Below are positions 10,568-51,342 of a DNA stretch of 64,000 nucleotides, piece after piece. The stretch lies in the IMG/VR virus record IMGVR_UViG_3300025163_000003; one strand, 5' to 3'. The notes below the pieces were generated by a model, which saw nothing but the letters and a program-made list of their open reading frames with translations, was not told the DNA's origin and made no database searches. The position numbers and the translations under genes were made by a program. Position 1 is the stretch's first letter. Every line of letters starts with the position of its first letter. This stretch comes from a virus.

Positions 10568-11567
10568 GGTGGAATACATGGATCCAGTTGTAGAAGAAAT
10601 CTTCAAGAAACACTGGAAGAAATTGAAGAAACTCCCCAATGTTATTGGTTTTGATGGTAAGTTGAGACCAAGAGAAAGAAACAAACAACTTGTACCTGGC
10701 ACTCAAGTCTTCAGAGTTTATGTTTCTAAGAAAGTGCCCATTCATCAATTGAAAGACTCTGAAATAATACCTAGGAAATTGAAAGCGTCAAATTGTGAAG
10801 TTGAAGTTGACGTGGTAGAGATAGGAGAGATAAAAGCTTTGTCATTAAACAAACAAAGACACAGACCTGTTAAAGGTGGAATTTCAACCATGCACTATCA
10901 AGGTACTGCATGTACATTGAATGGTTTCTTTCGTGACAAAGAAACAGGGAAAATCTTAGTAGCATCCAACAATCATTGTTATGCAATGGAGAATAAAGCT
11001 AAGAAAGGAGATCCAGTATTACAACCTGCTCCTTATGATGGTGGAATACTAGGGAAAGACAACATTGGAAGATATTACAAATGTGTTGAAATAAAGTTCA
11101 ATGAATTCACTTGCCCTGTAAGAAACTTCTTCCATAGAATTTATCGTTTCTTCAAACGTGAACAACCTACTAACAAAGTAGACATTGCATTTGCTGAATT
11201 AGATGTTGACTATGAAGTAGCTGCCACTTATATTCAAAATGCTTACAAAGGGAAACGTCTACCAGAAGAAGGAGAACAAGTACAAAAGACAGGAAGAACT
11301 ACTGAACATACTGTAGGTGAAGTAGTTTCTCTACATTGGAATGGTCAAGTACAATACTCAAGAGGCATTGCCTTCTTCGTTGACTGTATACTCATCAAAG
11401 GACATCATTTCTCTCAAGGAGGAGACAGTGGTTCTCCTGTCTTTGACATGGAAGGAAACTACATAGGAGCATTATTTGCTGGAAGTGATGAGTACACTAT
11501 TGTCTGTAAAGTGACAAACATTGAAGAGGAAGCAGAAGTAGAATTAATAACGGAAGAGGAGAAATGA
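10545..11567 (+). CDS. chymotrypsin/trypsin-fold serine protease (candidate lysis enzyme)
   Basis: Catalytic His in ASNNHCYAME, Asp in NKVDIAFAELD, Ser in GGDSGSPVFDMEGNYIGALFAGS (GDSGxP signature). No signal peptide. Confidence 0.8.
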   Translation: MSFKVFCKVEYMDPVVEEIFKKHWKKLKKLPNVIGFDGKLRPRERNKQLVPGTQVFRVYVSKKVPIHQLKDSEIIPRKLKASNCEVEVDVVEIGEIKALSLNKQRHRPVKGGISTMHYQGTACTLNGFFRDKETGKILVASNNHCYAMENKAKKGDPVLQPAPYDGGILGKDNIGRYYKCVEIKFNEFTCPVRNFFHRIYRFFKREQPTNKVDIAFAELDVDYEVAATYIQNAYKGKRLPEEGEQVQKTGRTTEHTVGEVVSLHWNGQVQYSRGIAFFVDCILIKGHHFSQGGDSGSPVFDMEGNYIGALFAGSDEYTIVCKVTNIEEEAEVELITEEEK

Positions 11568-22274: not shown

Positions 22275-22557
22275 ACTCCAGTCTTTTCAATTCAGGTTCT
22301 TTCTTGGAAGGATTAATCCATATCAACAACAAAACAACTCTTAGTCGTAACAGTGCACCATAAAAGCCACATGGACAAGTAACTTCCACCGCGTTTACAG
22401 TGGGAGGAAGAATCGTTTTATGTTCTTTACCACAAAAGGGACATTCCCAAGAAATTCCTTTAGCACTTGGAGTTACTGTCCTTGGTGTCCTTATTGTTGG
22501 TATTTGATGACGTGCTCTTGTTCTCAAACTCGGAAAGCGTCTTATCTTTGACACCAT
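22267..22557 (-). CDS. small Zn-ribbon protein (start uncertain; overlaps the XPF 3' end)
   Basis: CPFCGKEHK...CPCG; basic N-terminus. The predicted start overlaps the last ~30 codons of 22460..23269. Confidence 0.3.
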   Translation of the reverse strand: MVSKIRRFPSLRTRARHQIPTIRTPRTVTPSAKGISWECPFCGKEHKTILPPTVNAVEVTCPCGFYGALLRLRVVLLLIWINPSKKEPELKRLEFV

Positions 22558-25338: not shown

Positions 25339-26397
25339 TCACTCTTCCCATTCTACTATGAACTCTTCAGCTTCTTCTGCTTCTGCAGGTCTAGCTTCTT
25401 CTACTTCTCCTTCAGGTTGGATTATTGGATACACTGAATATCCTTCTATTGAGAATCTAGGTTCATCTTCCTCTGTTCTAGTCCATATTCTAGGTCTACC
25501 AAACACTAACACTCTAGAGTATTCTCTGAATCCAAGTGGAAAGTCTTGTGGCAGGAATACTCTGATAGGCCAAGTGTAGTCACTTTCAGAGTCTGTCAAT
25601 AGAATACTTCTTGAACCTGTCTTTGGATTAATGTTGGTATCTATTAAGTCCACATCTCCTTCAATCATTATCCATGGATCAGTTGCATTCTGACAAGACT
25701 GAACAGCTTCTTCCAATTTGTCAAAGGAATAGAATCTATCTGCTAGAGCTGTTCTCATCCACTGTTCAATGTCTATTTCTTCATCCACTACTGTGAATTT
25801 AGTGTGTCTTGAAGGTGTCAATTCAAAGTATGGTGTTTCCTGCTGTACAAGTGCCAGAAATCTTACTGGTACAAATGGCTTGTATCTGAACTTCTCTGCA
25901 GCTGCTCTCCACAGTTTCATTCTAAAGAGTCTAGGTTTAGGATCATTCTCTCTTTTTGCTATTCCAAAGACACTTCTAGTGAACAAATGTCCTGTCAATG
26001 GTTTATGATAGTTTGGATTAGGAACTTCTTCTCCTCTTCTGTTCTTTATTGTTGGTCTATCATCCAATGGCACTCCATTCTCATCCACTAGTCCTAGTAG
26101 TTTAGCTTCTTCTGGATCTTCTGCCCACTTGTTAAGTGCTCGTCTTTTCTTGAGTTCTATCAAGTCTACTAGTCTGTCACATCCAAGGATAAAACCAAAG
26201 AAATATTCTGGTTTTCTTCCTCCACCTCCAGTCAATAATCTTCTAAGTTTTCTTGCAAGTTGAATTCTGACAATTCTCTCATCAGTGATTCCTGACTTAG
26301 CTGCTAGTTCTTTTTGTTTCTTCCATAGTTCTCTCATTTCCTTCATTGATTTTCCTGTTTTCTTAGCCCATTTCTTCAAAAATTGTTCCAATTCCAT
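25339..26397 (-). CDS. hypothetical protein with acidic C-terminal tail (possible ssDNA-binding protein)
   Basis: 352 aa ending EGEVEEARPAEAEEAEEFIVEWEE. Position within the replication module; no diagnostic motif. Confidence 0.3.
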   Translation of the reverse strand: MELEQFLKKWAKKTGKSMKEMRELWKKQKELAAKSGITDERIVRIQLARKLRRLLTGGGGRKPEYFFGFILGCDRLVDLIELKKRRALNKWAEDPEEAKLLGLVDENGVPLDDRPTIKNRRGEEVPNPNYHKPLTGHLFTRSVFGIAKRENDPKPRLFRMKLWRAAAEKFRYKPFVPVRFLALVQQETPYFELTPSRHTKFTVVDEEIDIEQWMRTALADRFYSFDKLEEAVQSCQNATDPWIMIEGDVDLIDTNINPKTGSRSILLTDSESDYTWPIRVFLPQDFPLGFREYSRVLVFGRPRIWTRTEEDEPRFSIEGYSVYPIIQPEGEVEEARPAEAEEAEEFIVEWEE

Positions 26398-26530: not shown

Positions 26531-27550
26531 CTAAACAAACTTAAGATCTCTTAGAGCAAGATACAAGTCTCTAAATGTCTGATCAGGTTTGAGTCTTAGA
26601 CCACCATATCCTGGATGACCAGATGCTATAAATCCTTTTGACTGTAAGTGTTGAAAGACAGCTTGAGCTAATGTTCCTCTTATGCTTCCTCTCCCTGTCT
26701 TCACATTTACTACCACTGTTGTTATCCTGTCACGTTGTTCAGCTACAAATGCTAAAGTTCTCTCCAACTTATAGTCTGACTGGATTTTCCAAAGTCTAAT
26801 TCCATTGTTCAATTGAATAGCATTTGACTCTTTTAGTATTCTTCTGTATTCATCATCTACAAACTTTCTAGCTGCATCTAAAGCTGGATCTTCCAGTATG
26901 TCTATTGGATCAGTAGCATTTCTCAAAACTGAATAGGCAGTGTACCACTTGTCAGGTATCTTACAGGCAGCATTTAAGGGAGCAGACAACTTAAGATAAA
27001 TTGGAAACTTTCTCAGTTCTATTTTTCCATACTTCTCATACACAGTAACATAGTTTTCCAACAGTTGAGGAGTCTCTTTAAAGACTTCAGGTGGTATCAA
27101 TTCTGGTTGTCCATCACCAACAATACCACACACTACTTTCCATCTATGTTCTTTAGGGATATAGTCTCTAAACAAGTTGTAGATTATCAAAGAAGTAGGA
27201 ACTTCACCCCAAATCAGTTTGTATGCTCTCTGCCCCTCTGGTGGATGACCTGGATGATGATCAATACATAGTTTCCCTGGCCATTGAGGATTAGCTGGAA
27301 CCATATCAACACAAGCATCTGGTGGATAGAACATTTCACCATCTATCTTTCTAGGCTTAATAGGCCATTCACCAAAATCTAATGGTGCCCATACTTTCTT
27401 TATCTTCAGTACAAAAGAGAGTAGAACACCAGAAGTTATTCCATCTGCATCATCATGTAAAGCTAGTTTCTCTATTGGTTCTACTTCCTTCTTCAATTGT
27501 TGATATTGTTTCCTGTCCAACATCCTTCCTACCTCCATCCTAATACACAT
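26531..27550 (-). CDS. DHH-DHHA1 phosphoesterase (RecJ/GAN/NrnA-like)
   Basis: Motif LHDDADGITSG, motif LCIDHHPGHPPE (DHH), DHHA1-like FIASGHPGYGGL. Confidence 0.8.
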   Translation of the reverse strand: MCIRMEVGRMLDRKQYQQLKKEVEPIEKLALHDDADGITSGVLLSFVLKIKKVWAPLDFGEWPIKPRKIDGEMFYPPDACVDMVPANPQWPGKLCIDHHPGHPPEGQRAYKLIWGEVPTSLIIYNLFRDYIPKEHRWKVVCGIVGDGQPELIPPEVFKETPQLLENYVTVYEKYGKIELRKFPIYLKLSAPLNAACKIPDKWYTAYSVLRNATDPIDILEDPALDAARKFVDDEYRRILKESNAIQLNNGIRLWKIQSDYKLERTLAFVAEQRDRITTVVVNVKTGRGSIRGTLAQAVFQHLQSKGFIASGHPGYGGLRLKPDQTFRDLYLALRDLKFV

Positions 27551-27761
27551 CTCTTCCTCTATACTTCCCTCTTCCTTTATACTTTCCCTTGTATCTTCTT
27601 GTCCTACCTTTAGAATTTCTTGTCAGAGACTTACACAACCACTTTAGAGGACAATTCTTACAGTCAAAGTGTTGTCCATATTCTCCTAGACAATATTTGT
27701 AGGAGTTGCTATAAGACACATTTTCCTCCTCTACATTTTCCATAGATGCTGACATCTTCAT
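27540..27761 (-). CDS. small Cys-rich protein with Arg/Lys/Tyr-rich tail
   Basis: CLGEYGQHFDCKNCPLKWLC followed by RRYKGKYKGRGKYRGRDVY; overlaps the ribonucleotide reductase start. Confidence 0.3.
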   Translation of the reverse strand: MKMSASMENVEEENVSYSNSYKYCLGEYGQHFDCKNCPLKWLCKSLTRNSKGRTRRYKGKYKGRGKYRGRDVY

Positions 27762-29817
27762 CCTCTTCTTCTTTAGATTCTTTTTTCACAGTAGTGAGAA
27801 CTTGAACACTTCTACAACGATCTCTAAATACCGTGATTCCTTTACACCCTAAACGGTAAGCCAACCAGTACACTTTCTCTACATCATGAGGTGTAGCTTC
27901 ATAAGGCAAATTGACAGTCTTAGAGACTGCATTGTCAGTGTATTTCTGAAAGGCCGCTTGCATTCTAACGTGCCATTCAGGAGACACATCATGAGCAGTC
28001 ATAAATAGACGTCTGATATGTTTGGGAATTTCTTCAACATCTTGAATACTTGTCTTGTTTGCTATCTTGTGTATTAGTTCAGGAGAATAGAATCCTTCTT
28101 TCACTGCTATCTCTTCAAACAATGGATTTATCTCTATCAGAGTATGTCCTAAAGATTTCTCTAGATTCCTCATGAGAACAATAGCAAAGAGAGGTTCAAT
28201 ACCACTTGAACAATTAGCTATAATTGAGATACTACCAGTAGGAGCTATAGCAGTTACACATGAGTTTCTGAGATATTTGTACCCTTTCTTCTTCCAGATA
28301 GACCTCTCAAACAATGGAAAGTTACCTTTCTCTTTCCCTAGTCTAACTGATTCTTTTCTTGCTTCTTCAGTGATAAACTTCATTATCTTCTCTGCCAAGT
28401 CAAGTGCTTCTTGAGAGGCATATGGTATGCCCAATAAGATTAACATTTCAGCCCAACCCATTACGCCTAGTCCTATTCTTCTAGTTGACTTTGTAAGTTC
28501 TTCTATCTGTTTCAAGGGATAATGATTAGCATCTATGACATTATCAAGAAATCTAACAGCTAGTCTTACTGTCTTTCTAAGTTTCTTCCAGTCTATCTCA
28601 TAACCAGAATTCTTTCTCCTCAACATCTTCTTCAAGTTGATTGAACCTAGGTTACATGATTCAAAAGGATACAGTGGAAGTTCACCACATGGATTAGTTG
28701 CTTCTATTGGTCCTAAAGATTTCACACAGTTAGAATAGGACTTGTTTATTGTGTCAATGAACAATAATCCTGGATCACCTGTCTTCCATGCTTCTGTTAT
28801 TAGAAGATCCCATACTCCTACCGCTTTTATCTTTCTCACAATTTTACCTGTCCTTGGATTTATCAATGGATATTCTTCATCATTCTCTAGTGCCTTCATG
28901 AACTCATCAGTTACAGCCACTGAAATGTTAAAGTTTTCAAATTTACCTTCTCTTGACTTGCATGTGATGAATTCAATTATGTCTGGATGATGAACAGAAA
29001 GAACTCCCATGTTAGCTCCTCTACGTTTACCTCCTTGCTTTATCTCATTAGTCGCTGCATCAAATACTCTCATGAAAGAGACTGGTCCAGAAGCTACTCC
29101 TCCAGTTGTTCTAACTACATCACCAGCAGGTCTAAGTTTAGAGAAAGAAAACCCTGTTCCTCCTCCTGTCTTGTGAATAATAGCTGCCCATTTAACAGCA
29201 TTGAAGATTTCTTCTAGAGAGTCTTCAACTGGAAGAACAAAACAAGCTGACAATTGTCCTAGTGGTCCACCTGCATTCATCAGAGTAGGAGAGTTAGGTA
29301 AGAACTCAAAGTTAGTCATCATCTTGAAGAATTCTCTTTCTAGTCTCTTCACATATTTCTTGTCCTTGCCATACTTGTATTCCACTTCAGCTATTGTCCT
29401 TGCTACTCTTCTAAACAACTGTTTAGGAGTCTCTTTCACTTCACCATTTTCATCTCTCAACAAGTATCGTTGATAAAGGACAATGAAAGAATTCAGTGGT
29501 AGTTTCAAGTCATTCTCTACACCAACTTTCTTAGCAAAGTCTCTTGCTCTTGCTTTTCGTTCTCGATACAGGATAAATGCTTTGGAAGTCTTGTAGAGTT
29601 TGTTCTGCACTAATGTCTCTTCTATCATGTCTTGTATCTCTTCAACATGCAATACTTCTTTCTTGACTGCTTTTATCTTATTCATCACACCAGAGAAAAC
29701 TTTCTCAAGAGTTTGTTTCTTGTATTCTCCTGATGCAAGTAATGCTTTCTTGATAGCTTGTTTAACTTTACAAGGATTGAACTTGACAACTCTATTGTTT
29801 CTTTTTCTTACCTTCAT
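27709..29817 (-). CDS. ribonucleotide reductase large (catalytic) subunit with N-terminal ATP-cone; probably class II (B12-dependent)
   Basis: ATP-cone [17 protein letters not shown]. Active-site motifs [17 protein letters not shown] and [10 protein letters not shown]-terminal Cys pair CRGGKC. No small-subunit gene in the window, which favours class II, but the class is not provable from sequence alone. Confidence 0.85.
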
Positions 29818-34361: not shown

Positions 34362-34640
34362 CTATCGCCTCAGAGAAGGATTAATATTTAACAGTCTTTT
34401 CAACTCTTTCTCTAGTTTCTGTTTCTTCTGCACTAACTGTGTTAGTTTCTTCTCAGCTTCACTTATTCTTCTTCTCCAGAGTCTAACTTCATACTTCATT
34501 GTTTCTGCTTCTTTCTCTAGTTTCATTGCACCTACTTGTGCTGTCAAGAGAGAATCTTTATAGTCCCTGATTTCAGTCTCTACTTTCTCTATTGCCTCTT
34601 CCAACTTCTTTATCTCCTCTTTCAAATGTTCAATTATCAA
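34362..34640 (-). CDS. coiled-coil protein
   Basis: 92 aa, heptad-rich. Confidence 0.35.
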   Translation of the reverse strand: MIIEHLKEEIKKLEEAIEKVETEIRDYKDSLLTAQVGAMKLEKEAETMKYEVRLWRRRISEAEKKLTQLVQKKQKLEKELKRLLNINPSLRR

Positions 34641-38095: not shown

Positions 38096-38636
38096 CTCCT
38101 TCTTTTAATTCTCTCTGGAGGAATCGTATAAAGGTTCTTTTAGAGGAGAAGATAATGTTAGAGTTACCAAACAACCATAGAGGAATACTTCCACCATCCT
38201 CTTTGTTCGTATAGATGACAATAACAGGTTTCCTGAGAATTCGATATGCAAAGAATATTTCCATGCTTGTTCCAACTGACAGTCGAGGAATGTAAGCTAG
38301 TAACATGTCACATTGAGCAATATCTTTCAAGTCATCAGTAATGACTTCTTCAGCTATCTCACGTTTCTCCTCCTCTTTCTCCAAATCTCTAAATGTCATG
38401 TGTTTACCTCTGAACTTTACCTGTTCTCTTTCCCATGGATCATGTATCTTGAACTTACTTGAGACTCTTGTCAGTTCTTCTTTCAAGATTTCTCTGTACT
38501 CTTGTTGCTCTTCTACAAAGGAAATAGGACCAGCTAAGTAGACATGAATTTCATCTTTTGTTCTCAACAACTTCCTTACTTGTTCTGAGTCTCTCTGTCT
38601 CCTCTTCCTAAGAATCCTTCTTAGAGGGATTTCCAA
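38079..38636 (-). CDS. nucleoside 2-deoxyribosyltransferase-like / deoxynucleotide N-hydrolase-like protein
   Basis: HVYLAGPISF N-terminal signature and LSVGTSMEIFFAYR (GT..E catalytic region). Confidence 0.5.
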   Translation of the reverse strand: MEIPLRRILRKRRQRDSEQVRKLLRTKDEIHVYLAGPISFVEEQQEYREILKEELTRVSSKFKIHDPWEREQVKFRGKHMTFRDLEKEEEKREIAEEVITDDLKDIAQCDMLLAYIPRLSVGTSMEIFFAYRILRKPVIVIYTNKEDGGSIPLWLFGNSNIIFSSKRTFIRFLQRELKEGDEKDD

Positions 38637-38973
38637 TTTCCTTCACCCACAAGTATTTGAAGGGATACCATACTTTACCAGACCAATGAGTGTAACCACA
38701 TAATGGACATTCTTCATCATGTTTCTCATCAGAACAGAACTCTGAATCTCTAAAAGGTTCAAATGGTAACTTTGTTATCTCCAACCAACACATCCAACAG
38801 ACACCTAAGTCAGGTGGATACTCTTGCCATTTTCTAGCTGCTCTTTTTCGTTTCTCTGGGTACTTGACATACTTCTCACGTTCTTTACAGATCTTTAGGA
38901 AATAGTAATAACTGTCTCTCCAACGTTTAGGTATCTTCTTTTTCTTCTCTTTCTTTAGAGATGGGTTTATCAA
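38608..38973 (-). CDS. Cys-rich hypothetical protein
   Basis: CWMCW...CSDEKHDEECPLCG. Confidence 0.3.
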   Translation of the reverse strand: MINPSLKKEKKKKIPKRWRDSYYYFLKICKEREKYVKYPEKRKRAARKWQEYPPDLGVCWMCWLEITKLPFEPFRDSEFCSDEKHDEECPLCGYTHWSGKVWYPFKYLWVKEIGNPSKKDS

Positions 38974-38974
38974 C

Positions 38975-39343
38975 TTATTTCACACTCGGGTTAGAAACTC
39001 GGAGTGACAGTATCTTCTTGAGGAGTTCAATTTCTTTCTTGAGGTTCTCTATCTGTGTCCTTTTAAGTTCTATCTTCTTCATTAGGTTCTTCTCATACTT
39101 TTCAGCTTCTCTCTCCAAGACTTCTTTGTTAGTTGTATAGGGACAAGTGAAAGAACAAGTTCTACAAATCAAATCATCTATAATTGTTTCATAGGTAATT
39201 GTTCTAACTCTTGTTAGAGTATTTACTCCACAGAATGGACATTTAATTTTTGTCTCCACTGGCAACAACCACCACAACAGACTTTCTTCGTTTTCTTGGT
39301 CTGACTGCCATGACTTGAACTTGTACGGTGTCTCCTTCTTCAA
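38975..39343 (-). CDS. Zn-ribbon + coiled-coil protein
   Basis: CPFCG...CRTCSFTC followed by IELKRTQIENLKKEIELLKK. Confidence 0.4.
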   Translation of the reverse strand: MKKETPYKFKSWQSDQENEESLLWWLLPVETKIKCPFCGVNTLTRVRTITYETIIDDLICRTCSFTCPYTTNKEVLEREAEKYEKNLMKKIELKRTQIENLKKEIELLKKILSLRVSNPSVK

Positions 39344-41484: not shown

Positions 41485-41882
41485 TGTTTCTTCACCTCAT
41501 CAAAACACAATTTCAAGAGAACTTCTGACTTTCCAATAGCTCCTTGTAATGGTATTTCTTTCTTGTATTCCAAGACAGGTTTCTCATCAGCTGGATTCAG
41601 AAACACTATCACTACTTTTCCCTTCAAACATGGTTTCTTTATCTTCAGAAGTAATTTCATTGAAAGAGAAGAAGTGTGATAATCCCAGTTGAGATAAGAG
41701 ATGTCAAGAGGAAGTTTCTTCCCATCTCCATATGCAAAAACTAGTAACTTGCATTTCTGAAGACGAGTAAAGACATGTTTTTGTAAAGACTTCAGTGATG
41801 GATTGTCAAGGTAATAAGGATCATGCAAAATAACTTCTGTCATTTCTTCACCAATAGGAGTAATAGAGTCTTTCCCACTCAT
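41475..41882 (-). CDS. hypothetical protein
   Basis: 135 aa. Confidence 0.3.
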   Translation of the reverse strand: MSGKDSITPIGEEMTEVILHDPYYLDNPSLKSLQKHVFTRLQKCKLLVFAYGDGKKLPLDISYLNWDYHTSSLSMKLLLKIKKPCLKGKVVIVFLNPADEKPVLEYKKEIPLQGAIGKSEVLLKLCFDEVKKQCQ

Positions 41883-43092
41883 TGACTACTGCATTTTTAC
41901 CACGAGTCAAGAAGTCCTTGATTTCTCTCTCTTTTAGTTCTATGTATTTGTCAAACATTTCACTACCAAGAGTCTCTTTCACAAGAGTATCAGATTTCAT
42001 TTCTGAAAGAGCTTCTAGTAATGACTTGGGAAGAGAAGGTAAGTTGTGTTCATAGGCATTACTTGAAAGTGGATCACCAGGATCAATTTTCTTTCTTACT
42101 CCCTCTAGACCAGCTTTCAACAGAACACTTAAGGCAAGATAAGGATTAGCAAGAGGATCAGATGCTCTATATTCAATTCTCATTCTCTCTTCCAAATTCT
42201 GTGAAGAATACAGAGGAACTCTTATCAGACAAGACCTATTCTTGAAACCCCAACTTATGTTGACAGGAGCTTCAGAATTCTTCTTTAGTCGTCTATAAGA
42301 ATTTACAGTTGGGCACATAATGGCTGACATTCCTCTAGCATGTTCCAATATACCACCAATGAAATATCTTCCAAATTGTGAGAGACCATTGTCATAGAAG
42401 AGATTTCCATTGTCAAACATTGAAATATGAAAGTGCATACCATTTCCTGGTAAGTGTGCCCATGGTTTTGGCATGAAGTTTACTTCTACTGTATGACTTT
42501 CTTTCAAGTATCTTCTCAAGAGAAATTTTATGAGAATAATGTTCTCAGAAGTGTTGATAGGAGAAGAATACTTAATACAGATTTCACTCTGGGAAGGACC
42601 AACTTCATGATTTCCATATTCCACATCTAATCCTGCTTTCTCTAAGACTTCCATAGCTTCCATTCTCAGACTTTCTGTTTCATCAGGAAAGATTTGACAG
42701 TATCTGTCAAGTAAATTCTCTGGCTCAAGAGGATTACCATTCTTAGTAAAGTAAAATTCTACTTCTGCTCCTACACGGATATTCTGATGAAATTCTTCTA
42801 AAGTTTTCTCTAAGACATACCTTGGATCAAGAGAGAATCTTTTGTCATCTTGATAGACTTCACAGAAGACTGTTGAGAATGGCTCACTCAAGTCACTGAA
42901 AAATATCTCTTTCTTAGTTCTTTCTATTGGCTTCAGAAGAAGATCAGAATTTTCTATTGTTGCAAAACCATCTACTGAAGAACCATCAAAACCAGTTCCC
43001 TCTTGTAGAACTACTTGATACTTGTCTTCAGGAATTGTTCTTACTCTTAATTTACCATTCAAGTCTAGGAAGAGAAGATAGACTATTTTCAT
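41848..43092 (-). CDS. glnA: glutamine synthetase family protein
   Basis: N-terminal beta-grasp signature GTGFDGSSVDGFATIENSDLLLKP. ATP-binding signature MPKPWAHLPGNGMHFHISMF. 414 aa. Confidence 0.85.
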   Translation of the reverse strand: MKIVYLLFLDLNGKLRVRTIPEDKYQVVLQEGTGFDGSSVDGFATIENSDLLLKPIERTKKEIFFSDLSEPFSTVFCEVYQDDKRFSLDPRYVLEKTLEEFHQNIRVGAEVEFYFTKNGNPLEPENLLDRYCQIFPDETESLRMEAMEVLEKAGLDVEYGNHEVGPSQSEICIKYSSPINTSENIILIKFLLRRYLKESHTVEVNFMPKPWAHLPGNGMHFHISMFDNGNLFYDNGLSQFGRYFIGGILEHARGMSAIMCPTVNSYRRLKKNSEAPVNISWGFKNRSCLIRVPLYSSQNLEERMRIEYRASDPLANPYLALSVLLKAGLEGVRKKIDPGDPLSSNAYEHNLPSLPKSLLEALSEMKSDTLVKETLGSEMFDKYIELKEREIKDFLTRGKNAVVNEWERLYYSYW

Positions 43093-43212: not shown

Positions 43213-43641
43213 TTACCCATTCAGTTCACCCTCCAATTCATCTAACAACTGAATAAAGAATTCAAGTTGTTCTCTCCATTCTCTGTTATCTAACCAAATA
43301 CAGTATCGTAAACGATCACAGTGAAGGCCATAAAGACTGAAACTTAGTTTTGGAGAAAACTTTCTGTCAAGTGGCTTCAAGATTCTATCAATAACTGTCT
43401 CAGGATCAAGAGAAGTTCTGAAGTCAATATGTGCTCTTCTACCTCCTTTCTCTGGATCTTCTCCATGACCACAGCAACTTTGAGTTGTCACTATAAATTT
43501 GTGTCTGTTTATTCTCTCAAGATAAGGAATCATTTCTTCATCTACATATCCCATTTGTATTTCTTCCTTCAGAGATTCTAATCTAAGTCTTCGTTCTTGT
43601 GGTGTCATCCTGTTTCCTTTGAACCTCTCCATCGAAAACAC
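43213..43641 (-). CDS. hypothetical protein
   Basis: 142 aa; QSCCGHGED motif; start region overlaps the topoisomerase 3' end. Confidence 0.3.
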   Translation of the reverse strand: MFSMERFKGNRMTPQERRLRLESLKEEIQMGYVDEEMIPYLERINRHKFIVTTQSCCGHGEDPEKGGRRAHIDFRTSLDPETVIDRILKPLDRKFSPKLSFSLYGLHCDRLRYCIWLDNREWREQLEFFIQLLDELEGELNG

Positions 43642-45253
43642 CTAATTCTTTCATGGCCCATTCAAACTTCTTTCTTAGACTTTTTGAATATGCTTTTTCA
43701 ACAGGATAATTGTATTTCAAACAGTACTTCAGAATTCTTCTTGGGTCAATGTATGAATTGAGAGAAGTGTTCAAGTTCCATTCAGCTGTTTCCTTTGTAA
43801 CTTCATAATCAAGTCTGTACTCAACTATCTTCTCCTTAATCTTTCTTATTCGTTCAAGTAGTCTTGCTTTCTGTTTCTCTGTCTTTGCCTTCTTTAACTT
43901 TTCTTCCAATTCCTTCAACTTTTCTTCATACTTCTGTATCCTTTCTTCTTTCTTCTTTAGTCTCTCTTGAAAGTTCTTAGGTAATTTCTTCTTGTGGTTA
44001 AGTCTTTTAGCAACATCACAATTGATAAGTTTGAAGGCTGTCTTCTTCAGATATAATGGTGAGTCTTCCTTGACTTCATAAAGGGAAGTGTACTTTTCTT
44101 CTGACATTTCCCATGTCTTACCAGCTAAGTGAGTCCTGAATATCTTTGCAGTTGCATTTGGAATTACTTCTTGTAAGAACTTGGCTATCTTCTTAGAATT
44201 CAAAGAGTCAAACACTCTCTGTCCTTTAGGAGTCTTCTTCCACAGTTTGAAGAAAACTTTGTGAATATCAGAAGGAAGCTCCAACTCTCTATGCCATGGG
44301 ACAAAATCTTTCCCTATGAAGTCAAGAATAACTTTGTTTCCTTCAAACTGAATATTTTCTTTTTTGAGTGTGGTACAACCTACGTTCCCTGTTTCACCAG
44401 CTATCTTTTCATCACCAACTCTAATTCCCATTTGCTGTATCAACCATACAGCAAGACCTAATTTCTGTCTTTCTTCATCATCTGAGAGAATAGCACTCTT
44501 GATGTGTTTGTCTAATTTCTTTTGATACTTGGGAATCTTAAGAGCTAGATCCCATTTCTTCTTTGCTCGTTCTTGTCTTATAACTGAATCCATACTGAAC
44601 CAGACATACTTCCACTTTCCACTGAGAGGATCTCGCCAACGAGCTATGTATAATTTGTCTGGCTTCCATTCTACCTTCCATCTTCCATCCGGTCTCGGTG
44701 CATCAGGAGATAAGTTGAGTATGATCTCCTCTTCCTTGATCCTTCTTTTGTAGCGTCCTCTCAGTGGATGTTTTCCTTTTGAAATATATAGTCCTGGTGG
44801 CTCAACTGTCCAATTCATAATTGGTACTCTTTGTCCATCCACAATAGCATATCCATATTTCTCCTTCAATGCTTCCCTCATCTTCTTTCTATCTTCTCTT
44901 AGTTTCTTCTTCATCTCTTTAGGTAAGTTCTTCTTCAGTTCCTTCTCTTTCTGTAATGCTTCATAGACCGATGAAAAGTCAAAGTCTTCCAACTTTACTT
45001 CTTCTTCAATGTTGAGTGCTATTCTCAAATCAGACAAGAAGTTGTTGACAAAGACTTCATCTTTCATGTAGTCAGTATCAAATTTCTTGACAAATGCAAC
45101 TACCATTTCTTCTTGTTCTGGTGTAAGTTTTATTTTCTTTCCTTTGTACTTGATAGTGTATCCTTTTGGCTCATAGGGAGGGATGTAAACTCCATTGTGT
45201 ATCAGTTGTTTCATAAGATTTCCCTCAGATACTTCCAAGCAAACCAAGTACAA
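43583..45253 (-). CDS. eukaryotic-type DNA topoisomerase IB
   Basis: HNGVYIPPYEPKGYTIKYKGKKIKLTPEQEEMVVAFVKKFDTDYMKDEVFVNNFLSDLR aligns with the human TOP1 core (HKGPVFAPPYEPL...YDGKVMKLSPKAEEVATFF...KEIFRKNFFKDWR). The active-site Tyr context TSLNSYIDPR matches TSKLNYLDPR. Confidence 0.9.
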   Translation of the reverse strand: MYLVCLEVSEGNLMKQLIHNGVYIPPYEPKGYTIKYKGKKIKLTPEQEEMVVAFVKKFDTDYMKDEVFVNNFLSDLRIALNIEEEVKLEDFDFSSVYEALQKEKELKKNLPKEMKKKLREDRKKMREALKEKYGYAIVDGQRVPIMNWTVEPPGLYISKGKHPLRGRYKRRIKEEEIILNLSPDAPRPDGRWKVEWKPDKLYIARWRDPLSGKWKYVWFSMDSVIRQERAKKKWDLALKIPKYQKKLDKHIKSAILSDDEERQKLGLAVWLIQQMGIRVGDEKIAGETGNVGCTTLKKENIQFEGNKVILDFIGKDFVPWHRELELPSDIHKVFFKLWKKTPKGQRVFDSLNSKKIAKFLQEVIPNATAKIFRTHLAGKTWEMSEEKYTSLYEVKEDSPLYLKKTAFKLINCDVAKRLNHKKKLPKNFQERLKKKEERIQKYEEKLKELEEKLKKAKTEKQKARLLERIRKIKEKIVEYRLDYEVTKETAEWNLNTSLNSYIDPRRILKYCLKYNYPVEKAYSKSLRKKFEWAMKELGVFDGEVQRKQDDTTRTKT

Positions 45254-46354: not shown

Positions 46355-46531
46355 TTAGTCCTTCCTTGACGGATTAAGTTCTCCTTTCAACATTTCAAAG
46401 TAGGCTAGAGCAGCTTCATATATCTTTAACTCTTTCTCTATCTCCTTCTTCCGTCTCTTCAATGCTTTAATCTCTTGCTTACAGAGTGAAATTAGAAAGT
46501 CAAGTTCTTTTCTTGACAGTGTCAACTTCAT
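46355..46531 (-). CDS. unlisted 58-aa coiled-coil protein
   Basis: MKLTLSRKELDFLISLCKQEIKALKRRKKEIEKELKIYEAALAYFEMLKGELNPSRKD. Its ATG overlaps the upstream stop (ATGA) and its stop abuts the next ATG; it fills a 150-bp gap. Confidence 0.35.
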   Translation of the reverse strand: MKLTLSRKELDFLISLCKQEIKALKRRKKEIEKELKIYEAALAYFEMLKGELNPSRKD

Positions 46532-46986
46532 TGTAACTTCTTCCTCAACAGGTAAGTGTAAATAAGTTCTTTCTCTTTCTTAAATCCTAGCTTCTCATAG
46601 AACTTTAATGCTTCAGTATTGTCTTTCTTGACTTCAAGAATTATTTCTTTGCCATTGTTGAGAAGAATTAAAGACATCAAGTACTTCATCATTCTCTTGC
46701 CAAAACCTTGTCTCTGATAACTGTCTGCTACTACAAGACCAGAAACTTCCCATGTCTCATCATCTATACGCGTCAACTTGCCACAAGCAATTATTTTCTT
46801 GTCTGTCAATAGTAAGATAAGTTGTTCATCTGGAAGACATTTCTTCAAATTAGAGTGAATGGTTTTGGGATCTATTCCAGACAGTGAGAGTCTCTTTCTG
46901 GTATCCTCAGACAATGACTCTACAAACTCAAGCAGTTTACGAGAAAAGCGACTGTTATACTTACGAAACTTGAACTTCAAGTTCAT
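46528..46986 (-). CDS. GNAT-family N-acetyltransferase
   Basis: VVADSYQRQGFGKRMMKYLMS and ALKFYEKLGFK. Confidence 0.75.
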   Translation of the reverse strand: MNLKFKFRKYNSRFSRKLLEFVESLSEDTRKRLSLSGIDPKTIHSNLKKCLPDEQLILLLTDKKIIACGKLTRIDDETWEVSGLVVADSYQRQGFGKRMMKYLMSLILLNNGKEIILEVKKDNTEALKFYEKLGFKKEKELIYTYLLRKKLQ

Positions 46987-47180
46987 TACCTCTTGGATGG
47001 AGATCTACTTCTTCTCCCTGTTGCTTCAAGTAGAAGTCTGATAGCTTCTTCCAACTTCTTCAGTTCTGTTTCTGGAATAACTTTGTCTTTGAAGGTAATC
47101 CAAATTGTAAGTTTCTCTGATGAACCTTCTTTTATTTCAACTTCCCAGTATTCTGTTCTCATCTGAAATTCAGATGCCAA
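46986..47180 (-). CDS. hypothetical protein
   Basis: 64 aa. Confidence 0.25.
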   Translation of the reverse strand: MASEFQMRTEYWEVEIKEGSSEKLTIWITFKDKVIPETELKKLEEAIRLLLEATGRRSRSPSKR

Positions 47181-48168
47181 TATCTTTCACCTCTATAGCC
47201 AATATCTTTACATTTCCTTCTGGAAATAAAGATTGTGTCTCTTCAATACGTTTAGGTGTAAGTTCAGAAGGTTTCTCTATAAGAATTATCTTGAATGAAT
47301 TTGTCAGGAGTGCTATTTCTTTTATCTTGTCTCTTGTCTTCTCAAAGTCAGCTATGTCCATGTCAGAAATGATGATGACATTAGCATCCTTGTATTCTTT
47401 GTCAGTAAAGAGGTCAAGTGCTTTAGAGAGAACTGTTCCTCCATTCCACACACCAAGTTCTCTCTTAGCTTCTGCTGTTGTGAAGAAATCTTTAATTCTT
47501 TTCTGAGGAATTCTTACTGCTGTGTCAGTGAAGAGAGCAAGGTAGAAATCAAAGTTGTTTGCTTTACAGATTTTCCATGTCTCTTCTGCTAGTAACAATG
47601 CCTTTCCTATTTTTCCCTTAGAAGTGTTCTGTCCTGAACCATAGAACATTGAACCAGAAGTATCCAAGATACAAATGATTTTAATTCCTTTCAGACGTTC
47701 TACTGATCTTCCTTTAGTGTAACCATACACTCTTTTCTGAAGAGTAACTCCAGGAATAAGACGTAAGTCTTCTAGTCCCATTGACTTTACTTCTGAAGAA
47801 GGAAGATCTATGTCCTTGAAAGAATCCCCCATTCTCCAAGGTTCAGTAGAAACTTGATACTTCTCACCTGCTACTCTTTTAAGTTCACGACTTACTCTCA
47901 AGTTTTCTTTAATGAACTTTCTAACTATCCTACGTTCCATGGCACTTTCCCATTCTGCTTTATCAACTTCAATTCCTAACTGATGAAGTTCTTCTAGAGA
48001 AGCTCCTTGTGATGCTTCTAATATCTTGTCCAAGACATCTGGATTTCCTTTTATCTTCATACCTTTTGCTTTACTTTCTGCATCTGGTTTAAGAGAACCT
48101 AATGGTTTGGGTATTACTTCTGTCTCTATTTCATAACCACATTTTGAACATCTGACTCTAATCTTCAT
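47170..48168 (-). CDS. von Willebrand factor type A (vWA) domain protein with N-terminal Zn ribbon
   Basis: RCSKCGYEIE at the N-terminus; MIDAS DxSxS motif ICILDTSGSMF. Confidence 0.8.
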   Translation of the reverse strand: MKIRVRCSKCGYEIETEVIPKPLGSLKPDAESKAKGMKIKGNPDVLDKILEASQGASLEELHQLGIEVDKAEWESAMERRIVRKFIKENLRVSRELKRVAGEKYQVSTEPWRMGDSFKDIDLPSSEVKSMGLEDLRLIPGVTLQKRVYGYTKGRSVERLKGIKIICILDTSGSMFYGSGQNTSKGKIGKALLLAEETWKICKANNFDFYLALFTDTAVRIPQKRIKDFFTTAEAKRELGVWNGGTVLSKALDLFTDKEYKDANVIIISDMDIADFEKTRDKIKEIALLTNSFKIILIEKPSELTPKRIEETQSLFPEGNVKILAIEVKDIGI

Positions 48169-48356
48169 GAGTTAATATCACCTTCTCTCTTGGAAGGATT
48201 CTTGATGGTTACTTTAACTTCTTTCATTTCAGTTGCTTCTCCTTTAACTGGTACAACCATGTTTGAACCACAATATGGACAAGAAGGTTCTTTCTGTCCC
48301 AAGAACATCCTTCCACACAACATACAGAGAAACAATTTCACTTCACTTTCACCCAC
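48165..48356 (-). CDS. small Zn-ribbon protein
   Basis: CMLCG...CPYCG. Confidence 0.35.
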   Translation of the reverse strand: MGESEVKLFLCMLCGRMFLGQKEPSCPYCGSNMVVPVKGEATEMKEVKVTIKNPSKREGDINS

Positions 48357-49225
48357 TTGCCAGTCTTAGGATCTTCATAAGCAACTATTTCCCATTCATC
48401 ATTTCCACATTTTGGACATTTAGGTGATCCTTCTCCTTCTTGTTCTTTCTTCTTCATTTCTTCAATGTCTTGTAGAATGTTCTCATGAAACAGTTTGCAC
48501 ATTTCCTTGAGAGCTAGGACAGTTGAAATTTTTCCTTCACGACATAAAGTAACAAGTTCAGCTATCTTCACAGCTTTCTCTTTAGACTTTTCATCTTTCA
48601 GTGGTACTTCAGGAAGAGTAGGATCTAGAATGGGATAGACAGAAAGATAGAGCATGAAAGTAGTATCTCTTTTAGCAGCCTTTTCTTTCTCATAGAAAGT
48701 TCCATCATTGTAGAGGAATAGCCACAATGTGTCCCAGAGTGAAGGATGCATGTCTCTAATATGTAGATTGACCAAGTAGTCTCCTAGAATGTTCTGAACA
48801 AATTGTATTTCTTTAACAGTGTATTCAAAACCTGACCAGTCTTCTATCTTGTACCACAATGTCTCCTTCTTTATTTTCGGTTTGAAGTGTAACTCTTCAG
48901 CTAGCATCCTTCTAGCTTCAAATACTTCTCTAATGCCTCTGAACAAATCAACTGGATATATTACCCAGTGATAGGCTTCATGGAACATTATAACATCAGA
49001 GAATTCTCTGCCTCTGAAGTAAGGTGTCTGAAAGAATATTTCACCAACAGTTGAGTAATAGCTTTCTACAAATGAGATCTTGAAGTGAAACCTCATCCTT
49101 GGAGTCATCGGTCTAGAGGTCTTCCACACTTTAATGAGACTCTGTTCAAATATTGACCTAACTTCATCAACTGTGTCTTTCGTGATGATCTTCTTTACTG
49201 AACCCTTCAAACTCTGTTTGGACAT
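48338..49225 (-). CDS. HExxH putative Zn-metallopeptidase-like protein (resembles vWA-associated peptidases) with C-terminal Zn ribbon
   Basis: IMFHEAYHWVIYP (HExxH) and C-terminal CPKCGNDEWEIVAYEDPKTGKWVKVK. Confidence 0.5.
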   Translation of the reverse strand: MSKQSLKGSVKKIITKDTVDEVRSIFEQSLIKVWKTSRPMTPRMRFHFKISFVESYYSTVGEIFFQTPYFRGREFSDVIMFHEAYHWVIYPVDLFRGIREVFEARRMLAEELHFKPKIKKETLWYKIEDWSGFEYTVKEIQFVQNILGDYLVNLHIRDMHPSLWDTLWLFLYNDGTFYEKEKAAKRDTTFMLYLSVYPILDPTLPEVPLKDEKSKEKAVKIAELVTLCREGKISTVLALKEMCKLFHENILQDIEEMKKKEQEGEGSPKCPKCGNDEWEIVAYEDPKTGKWVKVK

Positions 49226-49229
49226 GTGG

Positions 49230-49706
49230 CTATTCCTCTAATATTCCCAAATCTAATTCATCCAACACTTGAAAGACACTCTTTCTCACTCTAGTCTTAA
49301 TGTTGAATTTTTTCTTGAAGTATTCTATGAAGATGATGATTCTTTCCATTGGTGTCTTTTCTTGTCCTTCTTCTTCATTGAATATGACATGTCCTCTATA
49401 GACATAGAAACCAGCATCACCAAAAATGTCTAAAGATTTCTCTGCTCTCAAAATTGTCTTGAACTGATACAAGTCAAGTGAACGTTCTTTTGGTCCTCTA
49501 TGAGCATCTACTTTCTCCAACCAAGTCTTGAAGTGTTGGAACAGTTCACCATTGTTCTCAATTGGAATTCTGTATCCTTTTATTCCTTTGTCAGTTTCAT
49601 ATGCATAAGCTCTAAACTCTATACCTTTCACTGTGAGAAGAGTCTCTTCTTCCTTGACTACTTTGTGAGAGAAGACTTTAGGGTATGCTACTTGCTTTTG
49701 TGACAA
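49230..49706 (-). CDS. hypothetical protein
   Basis: 158 aa. Confidence 0.3.
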   Translation of the reverse strand: MSQKQVAYPKVFSHKVVKEEETLLTVKGIEFRAYAYETDKGIKGYRIPIENNGELFQHFKTWLEKVDAHRGPKERSLDLYQFKTILRAEKSLDIFGDAGFYVYRGHVIFNEEEGQEKTPMERIIIFIEYFKKKFNIKTRVRKSVFQVLDELDLGILEE

Positions 49707-51342
49707 GTCCTCTCTCCTCCAATTTTCTCTTTAACTCTTCTTTCAACTTGGTAGTCATAGCTGTTACTCTGACTAGACCATCTTCCTCTTCAAGAATAAC
49801 TAAGTCTGTCAACAGACTAATTTCTTTCTCAAATCTCATCTTCAAGAAAGCAAGGTCTTCTATCTCTGCATTTTGTTCTTGATGGAAGGAATGAATAACT
49901 TCAGCAAATACATCAATAGCAGTAGGTTCAACAGTCACATAGAAAGTGAAATTGGGATTGTCTTTAGTTGCCTCTGAAAGGACTTCTGACTTGTCTATTA
50001 CAGGCAGACCAGACATGTTCAAGAACTCATTAACTTCTTTCAAGTTGTTCCATTTCTTTTCTTGTATCATCTTCAAGTACTTTTTCTTGACTAAGTCTTT
50101 AACAGAATTGATTGTGTCTTCACAGAATTTGTATAGAGCATATATTTCTCGTGTTTCTGACAGGAGAGAACTTACTTCCTCTTCATTGAAGTGAGGTGGA
50201 TCACTTCTAGCATCTTCAACTATGGCATTCAATGTCAGGAAGATACCTCTGTTCTTCCAAGCTAACATGTCATCATTAAACTGTTGAACTAAGTCTTTTA
50301 CACTTTCAAGACTTTCAAATATTGTCTTTTCTTCACCTATCCAGACAAGACGATGAGGAAGAGTGAATGGAATTGCTTCATTTATCTCTTCAAATCCAAC
50401 TTGTCTCTTTCCTGCATACCATGCTAGAGCTTTAGCTAACAGAACAGTTGCTCTTAGAAATCTTGGTTTAGAGAGTGCTACTTTGGAACAGAGGTGTTGT
50501 TTCTCGTTACATTCTGCACATGTCTTCTGAAGTTTAGCTGCTGAGACATCAAACTTAGACTTGTAATGTTTACAGAGAGAAAGACAATTGGTGAAAAGTG
50601 TCAACCAGACTACTATTTTACTTGGTACCTCAATACCCATTATTTCTTTCCGTATCTCTTCATACTCTTTCCAAGTGATTATCTGTTTAAGAGGTCTCTC
50701 TTTTCTACCACAAGTAGCAAACTTATGAACCATCTTCTCTGATGCAACAGAATCTGCTTGAAAGACTGGTACTACAACGTCAATTCTGTCCAATGTAGCT
50801 AAGTTCTTTTCTTCCACTTGACCAGCATACCATTCTGTCAATGGATTTGTTAGAAATGTGTAGGTCTTAGTTAGAACATCTAAACCAGCATAAGTTCGTT
50901 CTTCTAACAACTGATGAAGTTTAGCTCTATATTTGTTGTTCCAGAGGAAGAATTCATCTATAATAATGTGATCTCTTTCCATCAATTCTCCTCTTCTCAT
51001 CTGTACTATGTTCTTCTCTCTGAAGACAGCTGGATCTATGTAAGCTATCATTGACTCATCTACTTCTGAAGAAGTAACAATTCTGTAATCAAGACCAGTT
51101 GTTATTGACCAGACTCTGGCTAAAGCAGATTTAGCTACTGCATGTTCTCCTATCAACATTATAGTCAAGTCAACAGCTTTTGAGAGACAGAAGATCTTGA
51201 TGACTTCATCCATGCCATAAAGTGTCTTCTTGATTTCTCTTATCTGTTCTTTTAATTTCTCTCTCAACTGCATTCTTTTCCCTACTTCTTTCTTGCTAGG
51301 AGACTTTTCTAAAATTTTCGTTGACATGGTATCACTCTCCAA
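49678..51342 (-). CDS. MoxR-like AAA+ ATPase
   Basis: Walker A of MoxR type (GxxxxAK[ST]) in IMLIGEHAVAKSALAR; Walker B HIIIDEFFLWNNKYRAKLHQLLEER. Confidence 0.55.
   Translation of the reverse strand: MESDTMSTKILEKSPSKKEVGKRMQLREKLKEQIREIKKTLYGMDEVIKIFCLSKAVDLTIMLIGEHAVAKSALARVWSITTGLDYRIVTSSEVDESMIAYIDPAVFREKNIVQMRRGELMERDHIIIDEFFLWNNKYRAKLHQLLEERTYAGLDVLTKTYTFLTNPLTEWYAGQVEEKNLATLDRIDVVVPVFQADSVASEKMVHKFATCGRKERPLKQIITWKEYEEIRKEIMGIEVPSKIVVWLTLFTNCLSLCKHYKSKFDVSAAKLQKTCAECNEKQHLCSKVALSKPRFLRATVLLAKALAWYAGKRQVGFEEINEAIPFTLPHRLVWIGEEKTIFESLESVKDLVQQFNDDMLAWKNRGIFLTLNAIVEDARSDPPHFNEEEVSSLLSETREIYALYKFCEDTINSVKDLVKKKYLKMIQEKKWNNLKEVNEFLNMSGLPVIDKSEVLSEATKDNPNFTFYVTVEPTAIDVFAEVIHSFHQEQNAEIEDLAFLKMRFEKEISLLTDLVILEEEDGLVRVTAMTTKLKEELKRKLEERGLVTKASSIP

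Follow-up and report, generated by a model that had tools for sequence, protein, structure and literature searches.

A split MoxR ATPase, zincin-like and vWA operon conserved in a group of uncultivated archaeal viruses

Results

Gene content and conserved order of the operon

The 64,000-nucleotide virus record IMGVR_UViG_3300025163_000003, which was analysed over its whole length and is referred to below as the window, carries at 47170-51342 an operon-like run of genes, all on the minus strand and with overlapping or abutting frames. They encode a MoxR-family AAA+ ATPase, a zincin-like protein with an HExxH motif and a von Willebrand factor A (vWA) protein with a MIDAS motif (metal ion-dependent adhesion site). 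In a preliminary description of this DNA the region had been read as three linked genes. The three main domains were correctly named there, but the interval holds five open reading frames (ORFs), the two additional ones encoding a conserved protein of 158 residues (p158) and a 63-residue zinc-ribbon protein. The motifs quoted at that time (Walker A, Walker B, HEAYH and MIDAS) all lie where they had been placed, on the minus strand. They are not chance occurrences, being invariant in alignments of 27 ATPase, 25 HExxH and 23 vWA homologues. The genes of the conserved core are as follows.

49678..51342, minus strand: MoxR-family AAA+ ATPase, a 554-aa ORF whose AAA+ core and lid span residues ~25-340
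49230..49706, minus strand: p158, 158 aa, conserved; in viral loci its place is always between the ATPase and zincin genes
48338..49225, minus strand: zincin-like protein of 295 aa with HExxH and, at its end, half a zinc ribbon
47170..48168, minus strand: vWA protein, 332 aa, with half a zinc ribbon, a conserved N-terminal region of ~150 aa and a vWA domain with MIDAS; 58 clusters

Co-conservation of the genes had been set as a check in the preliminary description, and the linkage is indeed kept across loci, with the zincin and vWA genes sometimes fused. The order ATPase, p158, zincin, vWA was found in all ten of the first related loci, p158 being missing only from L010, a locus binned as Bathyarchaeia. 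Where enough sequence follows the ATPase gene in 46 metagenome loci, p158 is present in 25 of 26 cases, the zincin in 19 of 19 and the vWA gene in 14 of 14, and a vWA/MIDAS partner gene lies in the ATPase operon in every locus that extends far enough. Moreover, loci L002 and L005 encode zincin and vWA as one polypeptide, as do the genes of P0146, P0148 and P0144, with a length of ~610-620 aa, or 986 aa with an intein. Synteny and fusions rule out a chance adjacency of the module genes, and the fusions prove a functional link between zincin and vWA. As for p158, tblastn gave matches in nine of the first ten loci and in the 25 of 26 metagenome loci mentioned above, and profile searches of Pfam, PHROG, NCBIfam and PDB sequences found no relatives; p158 is a fourth, virus-specific core component of the module. 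The ATPase-zincin-vWA family is confined to one archaeal virus group and one Bathyarchaeia lineage. The virus group consists of uncultivated archaeal viruses of roughly 60-180 kb, and a literature search for published descriptions of the group returned none that mentions the module.

The ATPase and its MoxR features

The ATPase is a MoxR-family AAA+ protein, with the following features.

51127..51150, minus strand: Walker A GEHAVAKS; G65, A70, K71 and S72 invariant
50953..50958, minus strand: Walker B (IIID)DE; D129-E130 invariant
50776..50847, minus strand: sensor 1 (N166-P167) to the DRID arginine-finger motif (R186), with inteins of homologues at both ends
50488..50574, minus strand: Cys4 insertion in the lid (C257, C275, C278, C285), seen from invariant columns and secondary structure
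50449..50475, minus strand: sensor 2 / lid motif LSKPRFLRA; R294 and R297 invariant; aligns with the 2r44 lid

The full MoxR motif set (G65, A70, K71, S72, D129, E130, N166, R186, R294 and R297) is invariant in the 27 aligned homologues. Further conserved features of the lid are the sensor 2 stretch SKPRFLRAT and an invariant PHR motif at the lid end. In the AlphaFold2 model, strands predicted at 100-102 and 115-117, between beta2 and beta3, correspond to the helix-2 insert, and a hairpin predicted at 150-155 corresponds to the pre-sensor-1 hairpin; the helix-2 insert and the pre-sensor-1 beta-hairpin are the features by which the MoxR clade is defined (PMC7159879). The best solved relative of the ATPase profile is the Cytophaga MoxR protein 2r44 (E 4.5e-6), followed by RavA. 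By fold, the best matches are 2r44, RavA and BchI, and the chelatase BchI is more distant from the ATPase than are MoxR proper and RavA. The four cysteines of the lid probably form a zinc site, which is unusual among MoxR proteins. The family comprises 45 clusters with 40-60% identity and is metagenomic throughout, and its shorter members (406-479 aa) lack the C-terminal helical and small alpha/beta domain found here at ~340-554. The ATPase is likelier to start at the ATG at 51327 (P0001, 549 aa, 100% identical) or at M24 at 51273, the start of most homologues, than at the TTG at 51342.

Two Pfam models pass their cut-offs with the ATPase, namely bpMoxR (28.8 bits, cut-off 27) and AAA_lid_2 (27.3 bits, cut-off 22.7); the MCM model remains below its own cut-off, and no NCBIfam model was matched. 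The sole full-length Pfam model above cut-off, bpMoxR, was built from MoxR-vWA ternary conflict systems, and such systems sometimes carry peptidase effectors fused to vWA, metallopeptidases included (PMC7159879). Together with the location of the operon in an early or accessory region, this would suit a MoxR-vWA device carried by the virus for defence or counter-defence, whose effector, the zincin, might for example degrade a host immunity protein or exclude competing viruses. However, the bpMoxR match is marginal and reaches only part of the profile (positions 2-126 of 205). A third component such as a beta-propeller or VMAP is missing, p158 being the sole additional conserved gene and having no Pfam match, and no PADLOC defence model is matched by any module protein. 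Within the virus group the module also forms a strictly conserved core instead of a variable island, and such conservation is unusual for conflict genes. We consider it improbable that the operon is a conflict system of this kind.

The HExxH protein is a predicted zincin without close relatives

Two motifs stand out in the HExxH protein.

48968..48982, minus strand: HEAYH; all 25 aligned sequences keep H82, E83 and H86
48776..48784, minus strand: G148-D149-Y150 of QNILGDYL(I/V)N, an invariant motif (N145, D149, Y150); the intein of P0141 lies directly after Y150

W87 and P91 are also invariant in the alignment, and HEAYH is replaced (by HELLR) only in the cellular Bathyarchaeia lineage. The AlphaFold model of the protein is confident (pLDDT 85, pTM 0.82) and has HExxH in the active-site helix of a zincin fold. 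By its predicted fold the protein is a zincin, and by sequence it is an orphan: its family forms 31 clusters of which none has a Pfam domain, and a profile search of all 1.84 billion representative proteins with the HExxH family returned nine. A DUF2201-type N-domain had been suggested in the preliminary description, and this is not supported by the family models. DUF2201_N (PF13203) and DUF2201 (PF09967) are matched neither in the 25 HExxH members (E<=10) nor in the 23 vWA members (E<=1), and among the 25 HExxH members no peptidase model of Pfam is matched at all, even at E<=10. What remains is a resemblance at the motif level, consisting of HExxH followed by N-x-x-x-D-x-x-[IV]-N, a vWA domain fused to it in P0146 and P0148, and a MoxR-like neighbour. 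A weak WWE_5 match over the HExxH helix, seen in 7 of the 25 members, was judged spurious.

The vWA protein and a zinc ribbon split between two genes

The vWA protein and the end of the HExxH protein carry the following motifs.

47650..47664, minus strand: MIDAS DTSGS; D169, S171 and S173 invariant; the intein of P0144 lies between G172 and S173
47362..47436, minus strand: remaining MIDAS residues T245 (GGT) and D269 (SDMD), both invariant
48407..48418, minus strand: CPKC (C270, C273), first knuckle of the split ribbon, invariant, in the HExxH protein
48139..48150, minus strand: CSKC (C7, C10), second knuckle of the split ribbon, invariant, in the vWA protein

The MIDAS, described earlier as perfect, is complete and invariant (D169-x-S171-x-S173, T245 and D269) across the 23 aligned vWA homologues. 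Eighteen of these match VWA_CoxE, with a best E of 1.5e-7, the window protein itself being under the Pfam cut-offs; a match to ViaA is weak (E 1.7e-6) and far under cut-off. CoxE and ViaA are vWA partners of MoxR ATPases, and ViaA pairs with RavA.

Two separate zinc ribbons had been assigned to the pair, one at the C-terminus of the HExxH protein and one at the N-terminus of the vWA protein. This did not hold, since each of them is one CxxC and the two are halves of a single ribbon in fused homologues. In the fused protein P0146, both CxxC lie in one four-Cys ribbon, CPKCG-x27-CKKCG (CPKCG...KVRCKKCG). A single CxxC is insufficient for tetrahedral zinc binding, yet both halves were kept after the split, which suggests that the split zincin and vWA proteins still share one zinc site. 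Such a split through the zinc ribbon predicts a zinc-bridged heterodimer.

Inteins at conserved sites of the three proteins

Inteins were found at five sites over the three module proteins, in homologues only, the window itself having none. In the ATPase they lie after S91 (P0026), at sensor 1 (P0029) and just before the T-x-DRID arginine-finger motif (P0014, P0019, P0027 and P0036). The zincin intein follows GDY150 directly in P0141 (L001 10037-11860), and that of the vWA protein is inserted inside the MIDAS in P0144. Because inteins typically occupy indispensable sites, their positions support an ATP site and a MIDAS that both work and a functional role of the GDY motif, and the five functionally critical sites would mark all three as essential. 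As an observation in its own right, the module gene set is unusually intein-rich.

A cellular copy and hints about the host

A three-gene version of the cluster occurs at the same chromosomal place in L010 (Bathyarchaeia metagenome-assembled genome (MAG) JAVZLH010000003; 7004-10213) and in L037 (8004-11199), between purF (with purF/purD-like genes) and an iron-sulfur reductase gene. The ATPase of this version has 406 aa, and p158 is absent. Its zincin has HELLR and GRY, that is, H86 and D149 are both changed to Arg, with E83 and E139 retained. The joint loss of H86 and D149 in the cellular lineage argues that the two residues belong to one site, which is probably the zinc site.

The Bathyarchaeia copy L010 is truly cellular. 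Contigs of the virus group have also been deposited inside MAGs labelled Thorarchaeota and Archaeoglobaceae (RLI52531.1, MEM2271919.1), and these are probably mis-binned viral contigs. The Bathyarchaeia copy is a hint to the host, though relatives are also binned as Thorarchaeota and Archaeoglobaceae.

Small ORFs and a common C-terminal motif

Two small ORFs within and next to the module vary more than its core or lie at its downstream end.

48165..48356, minus strand: 63-aa zinc-ribbon ORF with four Cys, ending ...KNPSKREGDINS; variable sequence, unconserved
46986..47180, minus strand: 64-aa ORF directly downstream of the vWA gene, conserved in close relatives

The small-ORF slot between the zincin and vWA genes differs in every relative and contains 1-6 ORFs per locus, almost all of them CxxC proteins with a terminal NPSx[K/R]. 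The 64-aa ORF, which is possibly in the same transcription unit as the module, ends in ...SPSKR in the window versus ...NPSRR or ...NPSKR in homologues, and the ORF just downstream of the module often carries the motif. In the window and nine loci, NPSx[K/R] falls in the last 20 residues of 65 of 496 coding-strand ORFs (13%), versus 1% of internal stretches of 20 residues. These 65 tagged ORFs represent 54 unrelated sequence clusters; 48% have at least two CxxC pairs, and the exact terminus NPSxR is seen in 23. Those of the window are all on the minus strand (48165-48356, 46355-46531, 38608-38973, 38975-39343, 34362-34640 and 22267-22557), and many others are found in L002, L003, L005, L009 and L041, while none was found in the two cellular loci. 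A signal at the DNA level (promoter, Shine-Dalgarno) was ruled out: the Ser of the motif is encoded via TCN (44) and AGY (21), in genome-like proportions, and since both types of codon are used the constraint acts at the protein level. The motif may serve as a tag for processing, degradation or targeting.

Kaur et al. (2020, PMC7159879) described zincin peptidases, coupled to MoxR-vWA, that cut small and rapidly diverging proteins with a common C-terminal motif (FxSxx-COOH and others). By analogy, the module might be a processing or turnover machine for NPSx[K/R]-tagged, mostly zinc-ribbon small proteins, and thus a virus-encoded, tag-directed AAA+/protease system, in which the zincin would cleave at or near the tag and the vWA and MoxR proteins would deliver or unfold the substrate. 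Such a role agrees with the cellular Bathyarchaeia copies, which have a degenerate zincin site and neither a p158 gene nor tagged ORFs nearby. The bacterial zincin/FxSxx systems resemble the present one in combining zincin, MoxR and vWA with many small fast-diverging proteins that share a C-terminal motif only (PMC7159879). They differ in the motif itself and in their radical-SAM, AP-ATPase and VMAP components, which are absent here, and they have a single precursor gene, whereas the tagged ORFs are scattered over the viral genome. We give a tag-directed role a small chance of being correct; if the tagged proteins prove to be substrates, the role of viral MoxR-vWA-peptidase systems would become directly testable.

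The window and the position of the operon

The window has a GC content of 37% and a strong strand bias, and by its look it belongs to a large archaeal virus, with genes for a DNA polymerase of family B and a ribonucleotide reductase as well as for a topoisomerase IB, an RNA ligase and a glutamine synthetase; its relatives are catalogued in IMG/VR as viral contigs. The module has RNA ligase, GNAT, RNase H and topoisomerase IB genes as neighbours, an arrangement that is kept in close relatives. The tail-fibre-like proteins are encoded on the strand opposite to the module, at a distance of ~35 kb.

This position bears on a role in virion morphogenesis, in which MoxR-vWA would assemble or mature virion parts while the zincin trims structural proteins. 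Virion assembly, like counter-defence, had been offered as a possible function in the preliminary description. Such a role has precedents, as p618 of ATV binds p892 and tail proteins (PMC4124505) and Iyer et al. propose assembly and peptidolytic processing for the jumbo-phage pair (PMC7824862), and the window genome is itself tailed-virus-like, with tail-fibre-like proteins present. However, the distance and strand of the operon relative to the tail-fibre-like genes, and its conserved neighbourhood in close relatives, speak against it. A homologous three-gene cluster lies beside purF in a cellular chromosome, where there is no virion, and the pairs of Hardycor1 and Delftia phage RG-2014 are likewise situated in replication/accessory regions. 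A location among replication genes gives virion assembly no support, and we regard this role as unlikely.

Several other genes of the virus group deserve mention. The structural part of the window on the plus strand includes a 1615-aa CBM_4_9 protein with tail-fibre-like PHROG matches (5394-10241), followed by a 340-aa protein with a PHROG 'protease' match (10545-11567; E 3.5e-45); the two probably form the end of a structural module on the opposite strand. On the minus strand, 43583-45253 and 41848-43092 encode, respectively, a topoisomerase IB of eukaryote type, in which all three Pfam domains are present, and a glutamine synthetase of full length, and the topoisomerase IB gene is syntenic with the module in close relatives. 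Related viral contigs contain Ribosomal_L16 Pfam matches (207-208 aa; L002 2078-2701 and L005 14840-15466) and one TOP6A/Spo11 Toprim protein (L004 351-1448), genes that are odd for viruses. The ribonucleotide reductase of the window (27709-29817, minus strand) is a class II NrdJ that depends on adenosylcobalamin and carries an ATP-cone (TIGR02504, 748 bits versus a cut-off of 400). The two ORFs beside it, 25339-26397 and 26531-27550, gave no match in a PHROG search, so neither resembles a small-subunit gene.

A cobalamin-dependent reductase is what a cobaltochelatase helper would serve: a CobS/CobT-like module would hijack a host CobN-type chelatase and provide more cobalamin for this enzyme. 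Liu et al. read the AAA and vWA genes of viruses as cobST and proposed the same role (PMC8651126), and the zincin model resembles phage proteins named CobT. Against this, the ATPase, the zincin, the vWA protein and the fused P0146 match none of CobS (TIGR01650/CobS_N), CobT and CobT_C in Pfam and NCBIfam, the ATPase resembles MoxR proper and RavA in fold more than it does BchI, and no CobN-Mg_chel match was found among the scanned large window proteins (791, 1615, 849 and 702 aa among them). The invariant HExxH with its catalytic Glu and the intein at GDY point to hydrolysis and not to metal delivery. We hold a chelatase function to be quite unlikely.

One more alternative is a DNA-protein crosslink protease of the Wss1/SprT type that, with its AAA+ partner, would clear trapped topoisomerase IB from viral DNA. 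Wss1 and Spartan score no better than a large number of other small zincins, in L002, L003 and L005, which are distant relatives having the module, there is no topoisomerase IB within 8 kb, and a DNA-binding domain is not evident in the module; this alternative is highly improbable.

Discussion

With moderate confidence, we propose that the operon encodes a MoxR-type chaperone and its vWA co-chaperone with a zincin protease of their own, that is, a MIDAS-targeted, ATP-driven machine for remodelling and cleavage that acts on an intracellular target. Going beyond the domain identities, the linkage and the fusions, which are observed, we infer a ribbon-mediated complex, proteolysis and the nature of the target. 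In the proposed mechanism, the zincin and vWA proteins would re-associate through the shared four-Cys zinc ribbon, to which each contributes one CxxC. The vWA MIDAS would then hold an acidic residue or peptide of the target, as in RavA-ViaA, CbbQ-CbbO, NorQ-NorD, CoxD-CoxE, the chelatases and ATV p618-p892. The ATPase, as a hexamer, would remodel the target using ATP and the attached zincin would cut it, with p158 serving as a virus-specific accessory, be it adaptor or regulator. The target is expected to be an intracellular viral or host protein complex of the replication phase and not the virion, because the operon lies in a replication/nucleotide-metabolism block and a cellular cluster exists in Bathyarchaeia.

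Several points weigh against this proposal. The ATPase does not reach the canonical MoxR models of Pfam (AAA_5 at 16.3 bits versus a cut-off of 22, AAA_3 absent). The third zinc ligand of the predicted zincin has two candidates, D149 and E139: D149 belongs to the invariant GDY, has an intein next to it and is lost together with H86 in P0143, whereas E139 is invariant and is retained in P0143. In the cellular lineage the protein persists although its site is degenerate (HELLR, GRY); it therefore has a non-catalytic, scaffolding role as well, and catalysis may be inessential to the machine. Moreover, hhalign comparisons of the ATPase and zincin with their haloviral, Gordonia and RG-2014 counterparts were not significant (E 0.03-0.35). 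Finally, the putative proteolytic activity of the zincin is read from motifs and a modelled fold only.

The operon can be compared with a number of known systems. MoxR-vWA pairs work as chaperone and co-chaperone, the vWA protein capturing a substrate peptide and the ATPase transmitting a conformational change (PMC7159879). The cellular pairs RavA-ViaA, CoxD-CoxE, CbbQ-CbbO, NorQ-NorD, BchI-BchD and CobS-CobT are similar to what we propose in MIDAS capture and ATP-driven remodelling (PMC7159879); they differ in having no protease and in their targets, which are metallo-enzymes or tetrapyrroles. A split viral version had been called uncharacterised in the preliminary description, which overstates its novelty given ATV p618/p892 (PMC4124505), the jumbo-phage pair (PMC7824862) and the split cobT of HHTV-2 (PMC8651126). 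In ATV, the MoxR protein p618 binds the vWA protein p892 and tail proteins, its partner stimulates the ATPase activity, and homologues exist in SMV1 (PMC4124505). As here, a MoxR ATPase of an archaeal virus has a vWA partner, the interaction having been demonstrated by experiment for the ATV pair. In contrast to the present operon, no peptidase domain is reported for the ATV pair, and its proteins are virion components tied to tail growth. A tblastn search of a phage and virus collection with the ATPase gave no match, and no sequence relationship was detected in this comparison.

Closer in architecture are the pairs that include a metallopeptidase. Group 2.2 (T4-like) jumbo phages have a MoxR protein paired with an N-terminal-metallopeptidase-vWA protein (Iyer et al. 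2021, PMC7824862), the AAA and vWA pair of haloarchaeal tailed viruses has been read as cobST, of which HHTV-2 has a split cobT (Liu et al. 2021, PMC8651126), and Hardycor1 has an AAA/vWA-MIDAS pair inside a replication/accessory module (PMC7911831). We verified the same architecture, a MoxR-clade ATPase gene beside one for HExxH followed by a MIDAS-vWA, in HHTV-2, HCTV-2, Hardycor1 and Gordonia phage Chidiebere. In HHTV-2 gp2, HCTV-2 gp79, Hardycor1 vwa and Gordonia phage Chidiebere gp73 the HExxH precedes an N-[IV]-L-E-D, and the motif pair HExxH, N-[IV]-[LA]-x-D is common to these four and the DUF2201_N protein of RG-2014. In a Foldseek search of BFVD with the zincin model, the top matches were phage CobT VWA/VWFA proteins and HHTV-2 gp2, the N-terminal half of a split cobT; these matches are weak (E 5e-3 to 9e-3, probability 0.96-1.0, TM-score 0.33-0.44 normalised by query length). 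A tblastn search of 50,697 phage records with the ATPase and the fused zincin-vWA protein returned nothing meaningful, and the vWA domain alone aligns significantly with phage proteins by profile (E 1.3e-4). The jumbo-phage and 'cobS-cobT' pairs of cyanophages, Gordonia phages and haloarchaeal viruses are like the present operon in the three domains, in their linkage and in the position of HExxH N-terminal to vWA when fused. HHTV-2 has its cobT likewise in two ORFs, and Hardycor1 shares the location among replication/accessory genes. Differences are also evident. The phage ATPases match AAA_5 and AAA_3, and one also the GvpN and CobS models, whereas the ATPase described here does not. The split runs here through the zinc ribbon, as against a long acidic linker in the jumbo-phage/cobST pairs, p158 is an extra conserved protein here, and the ATPase has a Cys4 insertion in its lid and a C-terminal domain unlike theirs.

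In N4-like phages, an AAA ATPase and a DUF2201_N/VWA-like protein are encoded together, for example by genes 33 and 36 of Delftia phage RG-2014 (PMC5735904), and bacterial DUF2201 proteins are found beside MoxR-like ATPases. RG-2014 gp36 (DUF2201_N and vWA) has HEIWH followed by WNIACDIWIN; its gene is downstream of the AAA gene and two small ORFs and is surrounded by dCTP deaminase, helicase and polymerase genes. The order ATPase, small ORFs, HExxH-vWA protein and the position beside nucleotide-metabolism and replication genes are thus alike. The RG-2014 signature is HExxH, N-I-A-x-D-x-x-I-N (WNIACDIWIN) versus QNILGDYLVN here, so that the resemblance is at the motif level only. Unlike in RG-2014, two genes share here what is one protein there, ~55 residues separate HExxH from the second motif as opposed to ~17, and the hhalign E-value between the two is 0.033.

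We do not claim homology to the phage and haloviral pairs, with which the operon has the same architecture and motif pattern, the sequence divergence being too great to prove common descent. The informative natural experiments of this family are its ribbon split, its fusions, its five intein sites and a cellular copy with joint ligand loss. Pairs of MoxR with a vWA metallopeptidase recur in N4-like phages, T4-like/jumbo phages, actinophages and haloarchaeal tailed viruses, and now in uncultivated archaeal viruses, and the roles proposed for them in the literature are cobalamin synthesis and virion assembly. To conclude, the operon is the archaeal-virus counterpart of the AAA and metallopeptidase-vWA pairs known from haloarchaeal tailed viruses and from N4-like, T4-like/jumbo and Gordonia phages; it is a split, highly divergent, sequence-isolated and structurally distinctive version of an ATPase/protease-vWA pair that is already known, and not a new kind of system.

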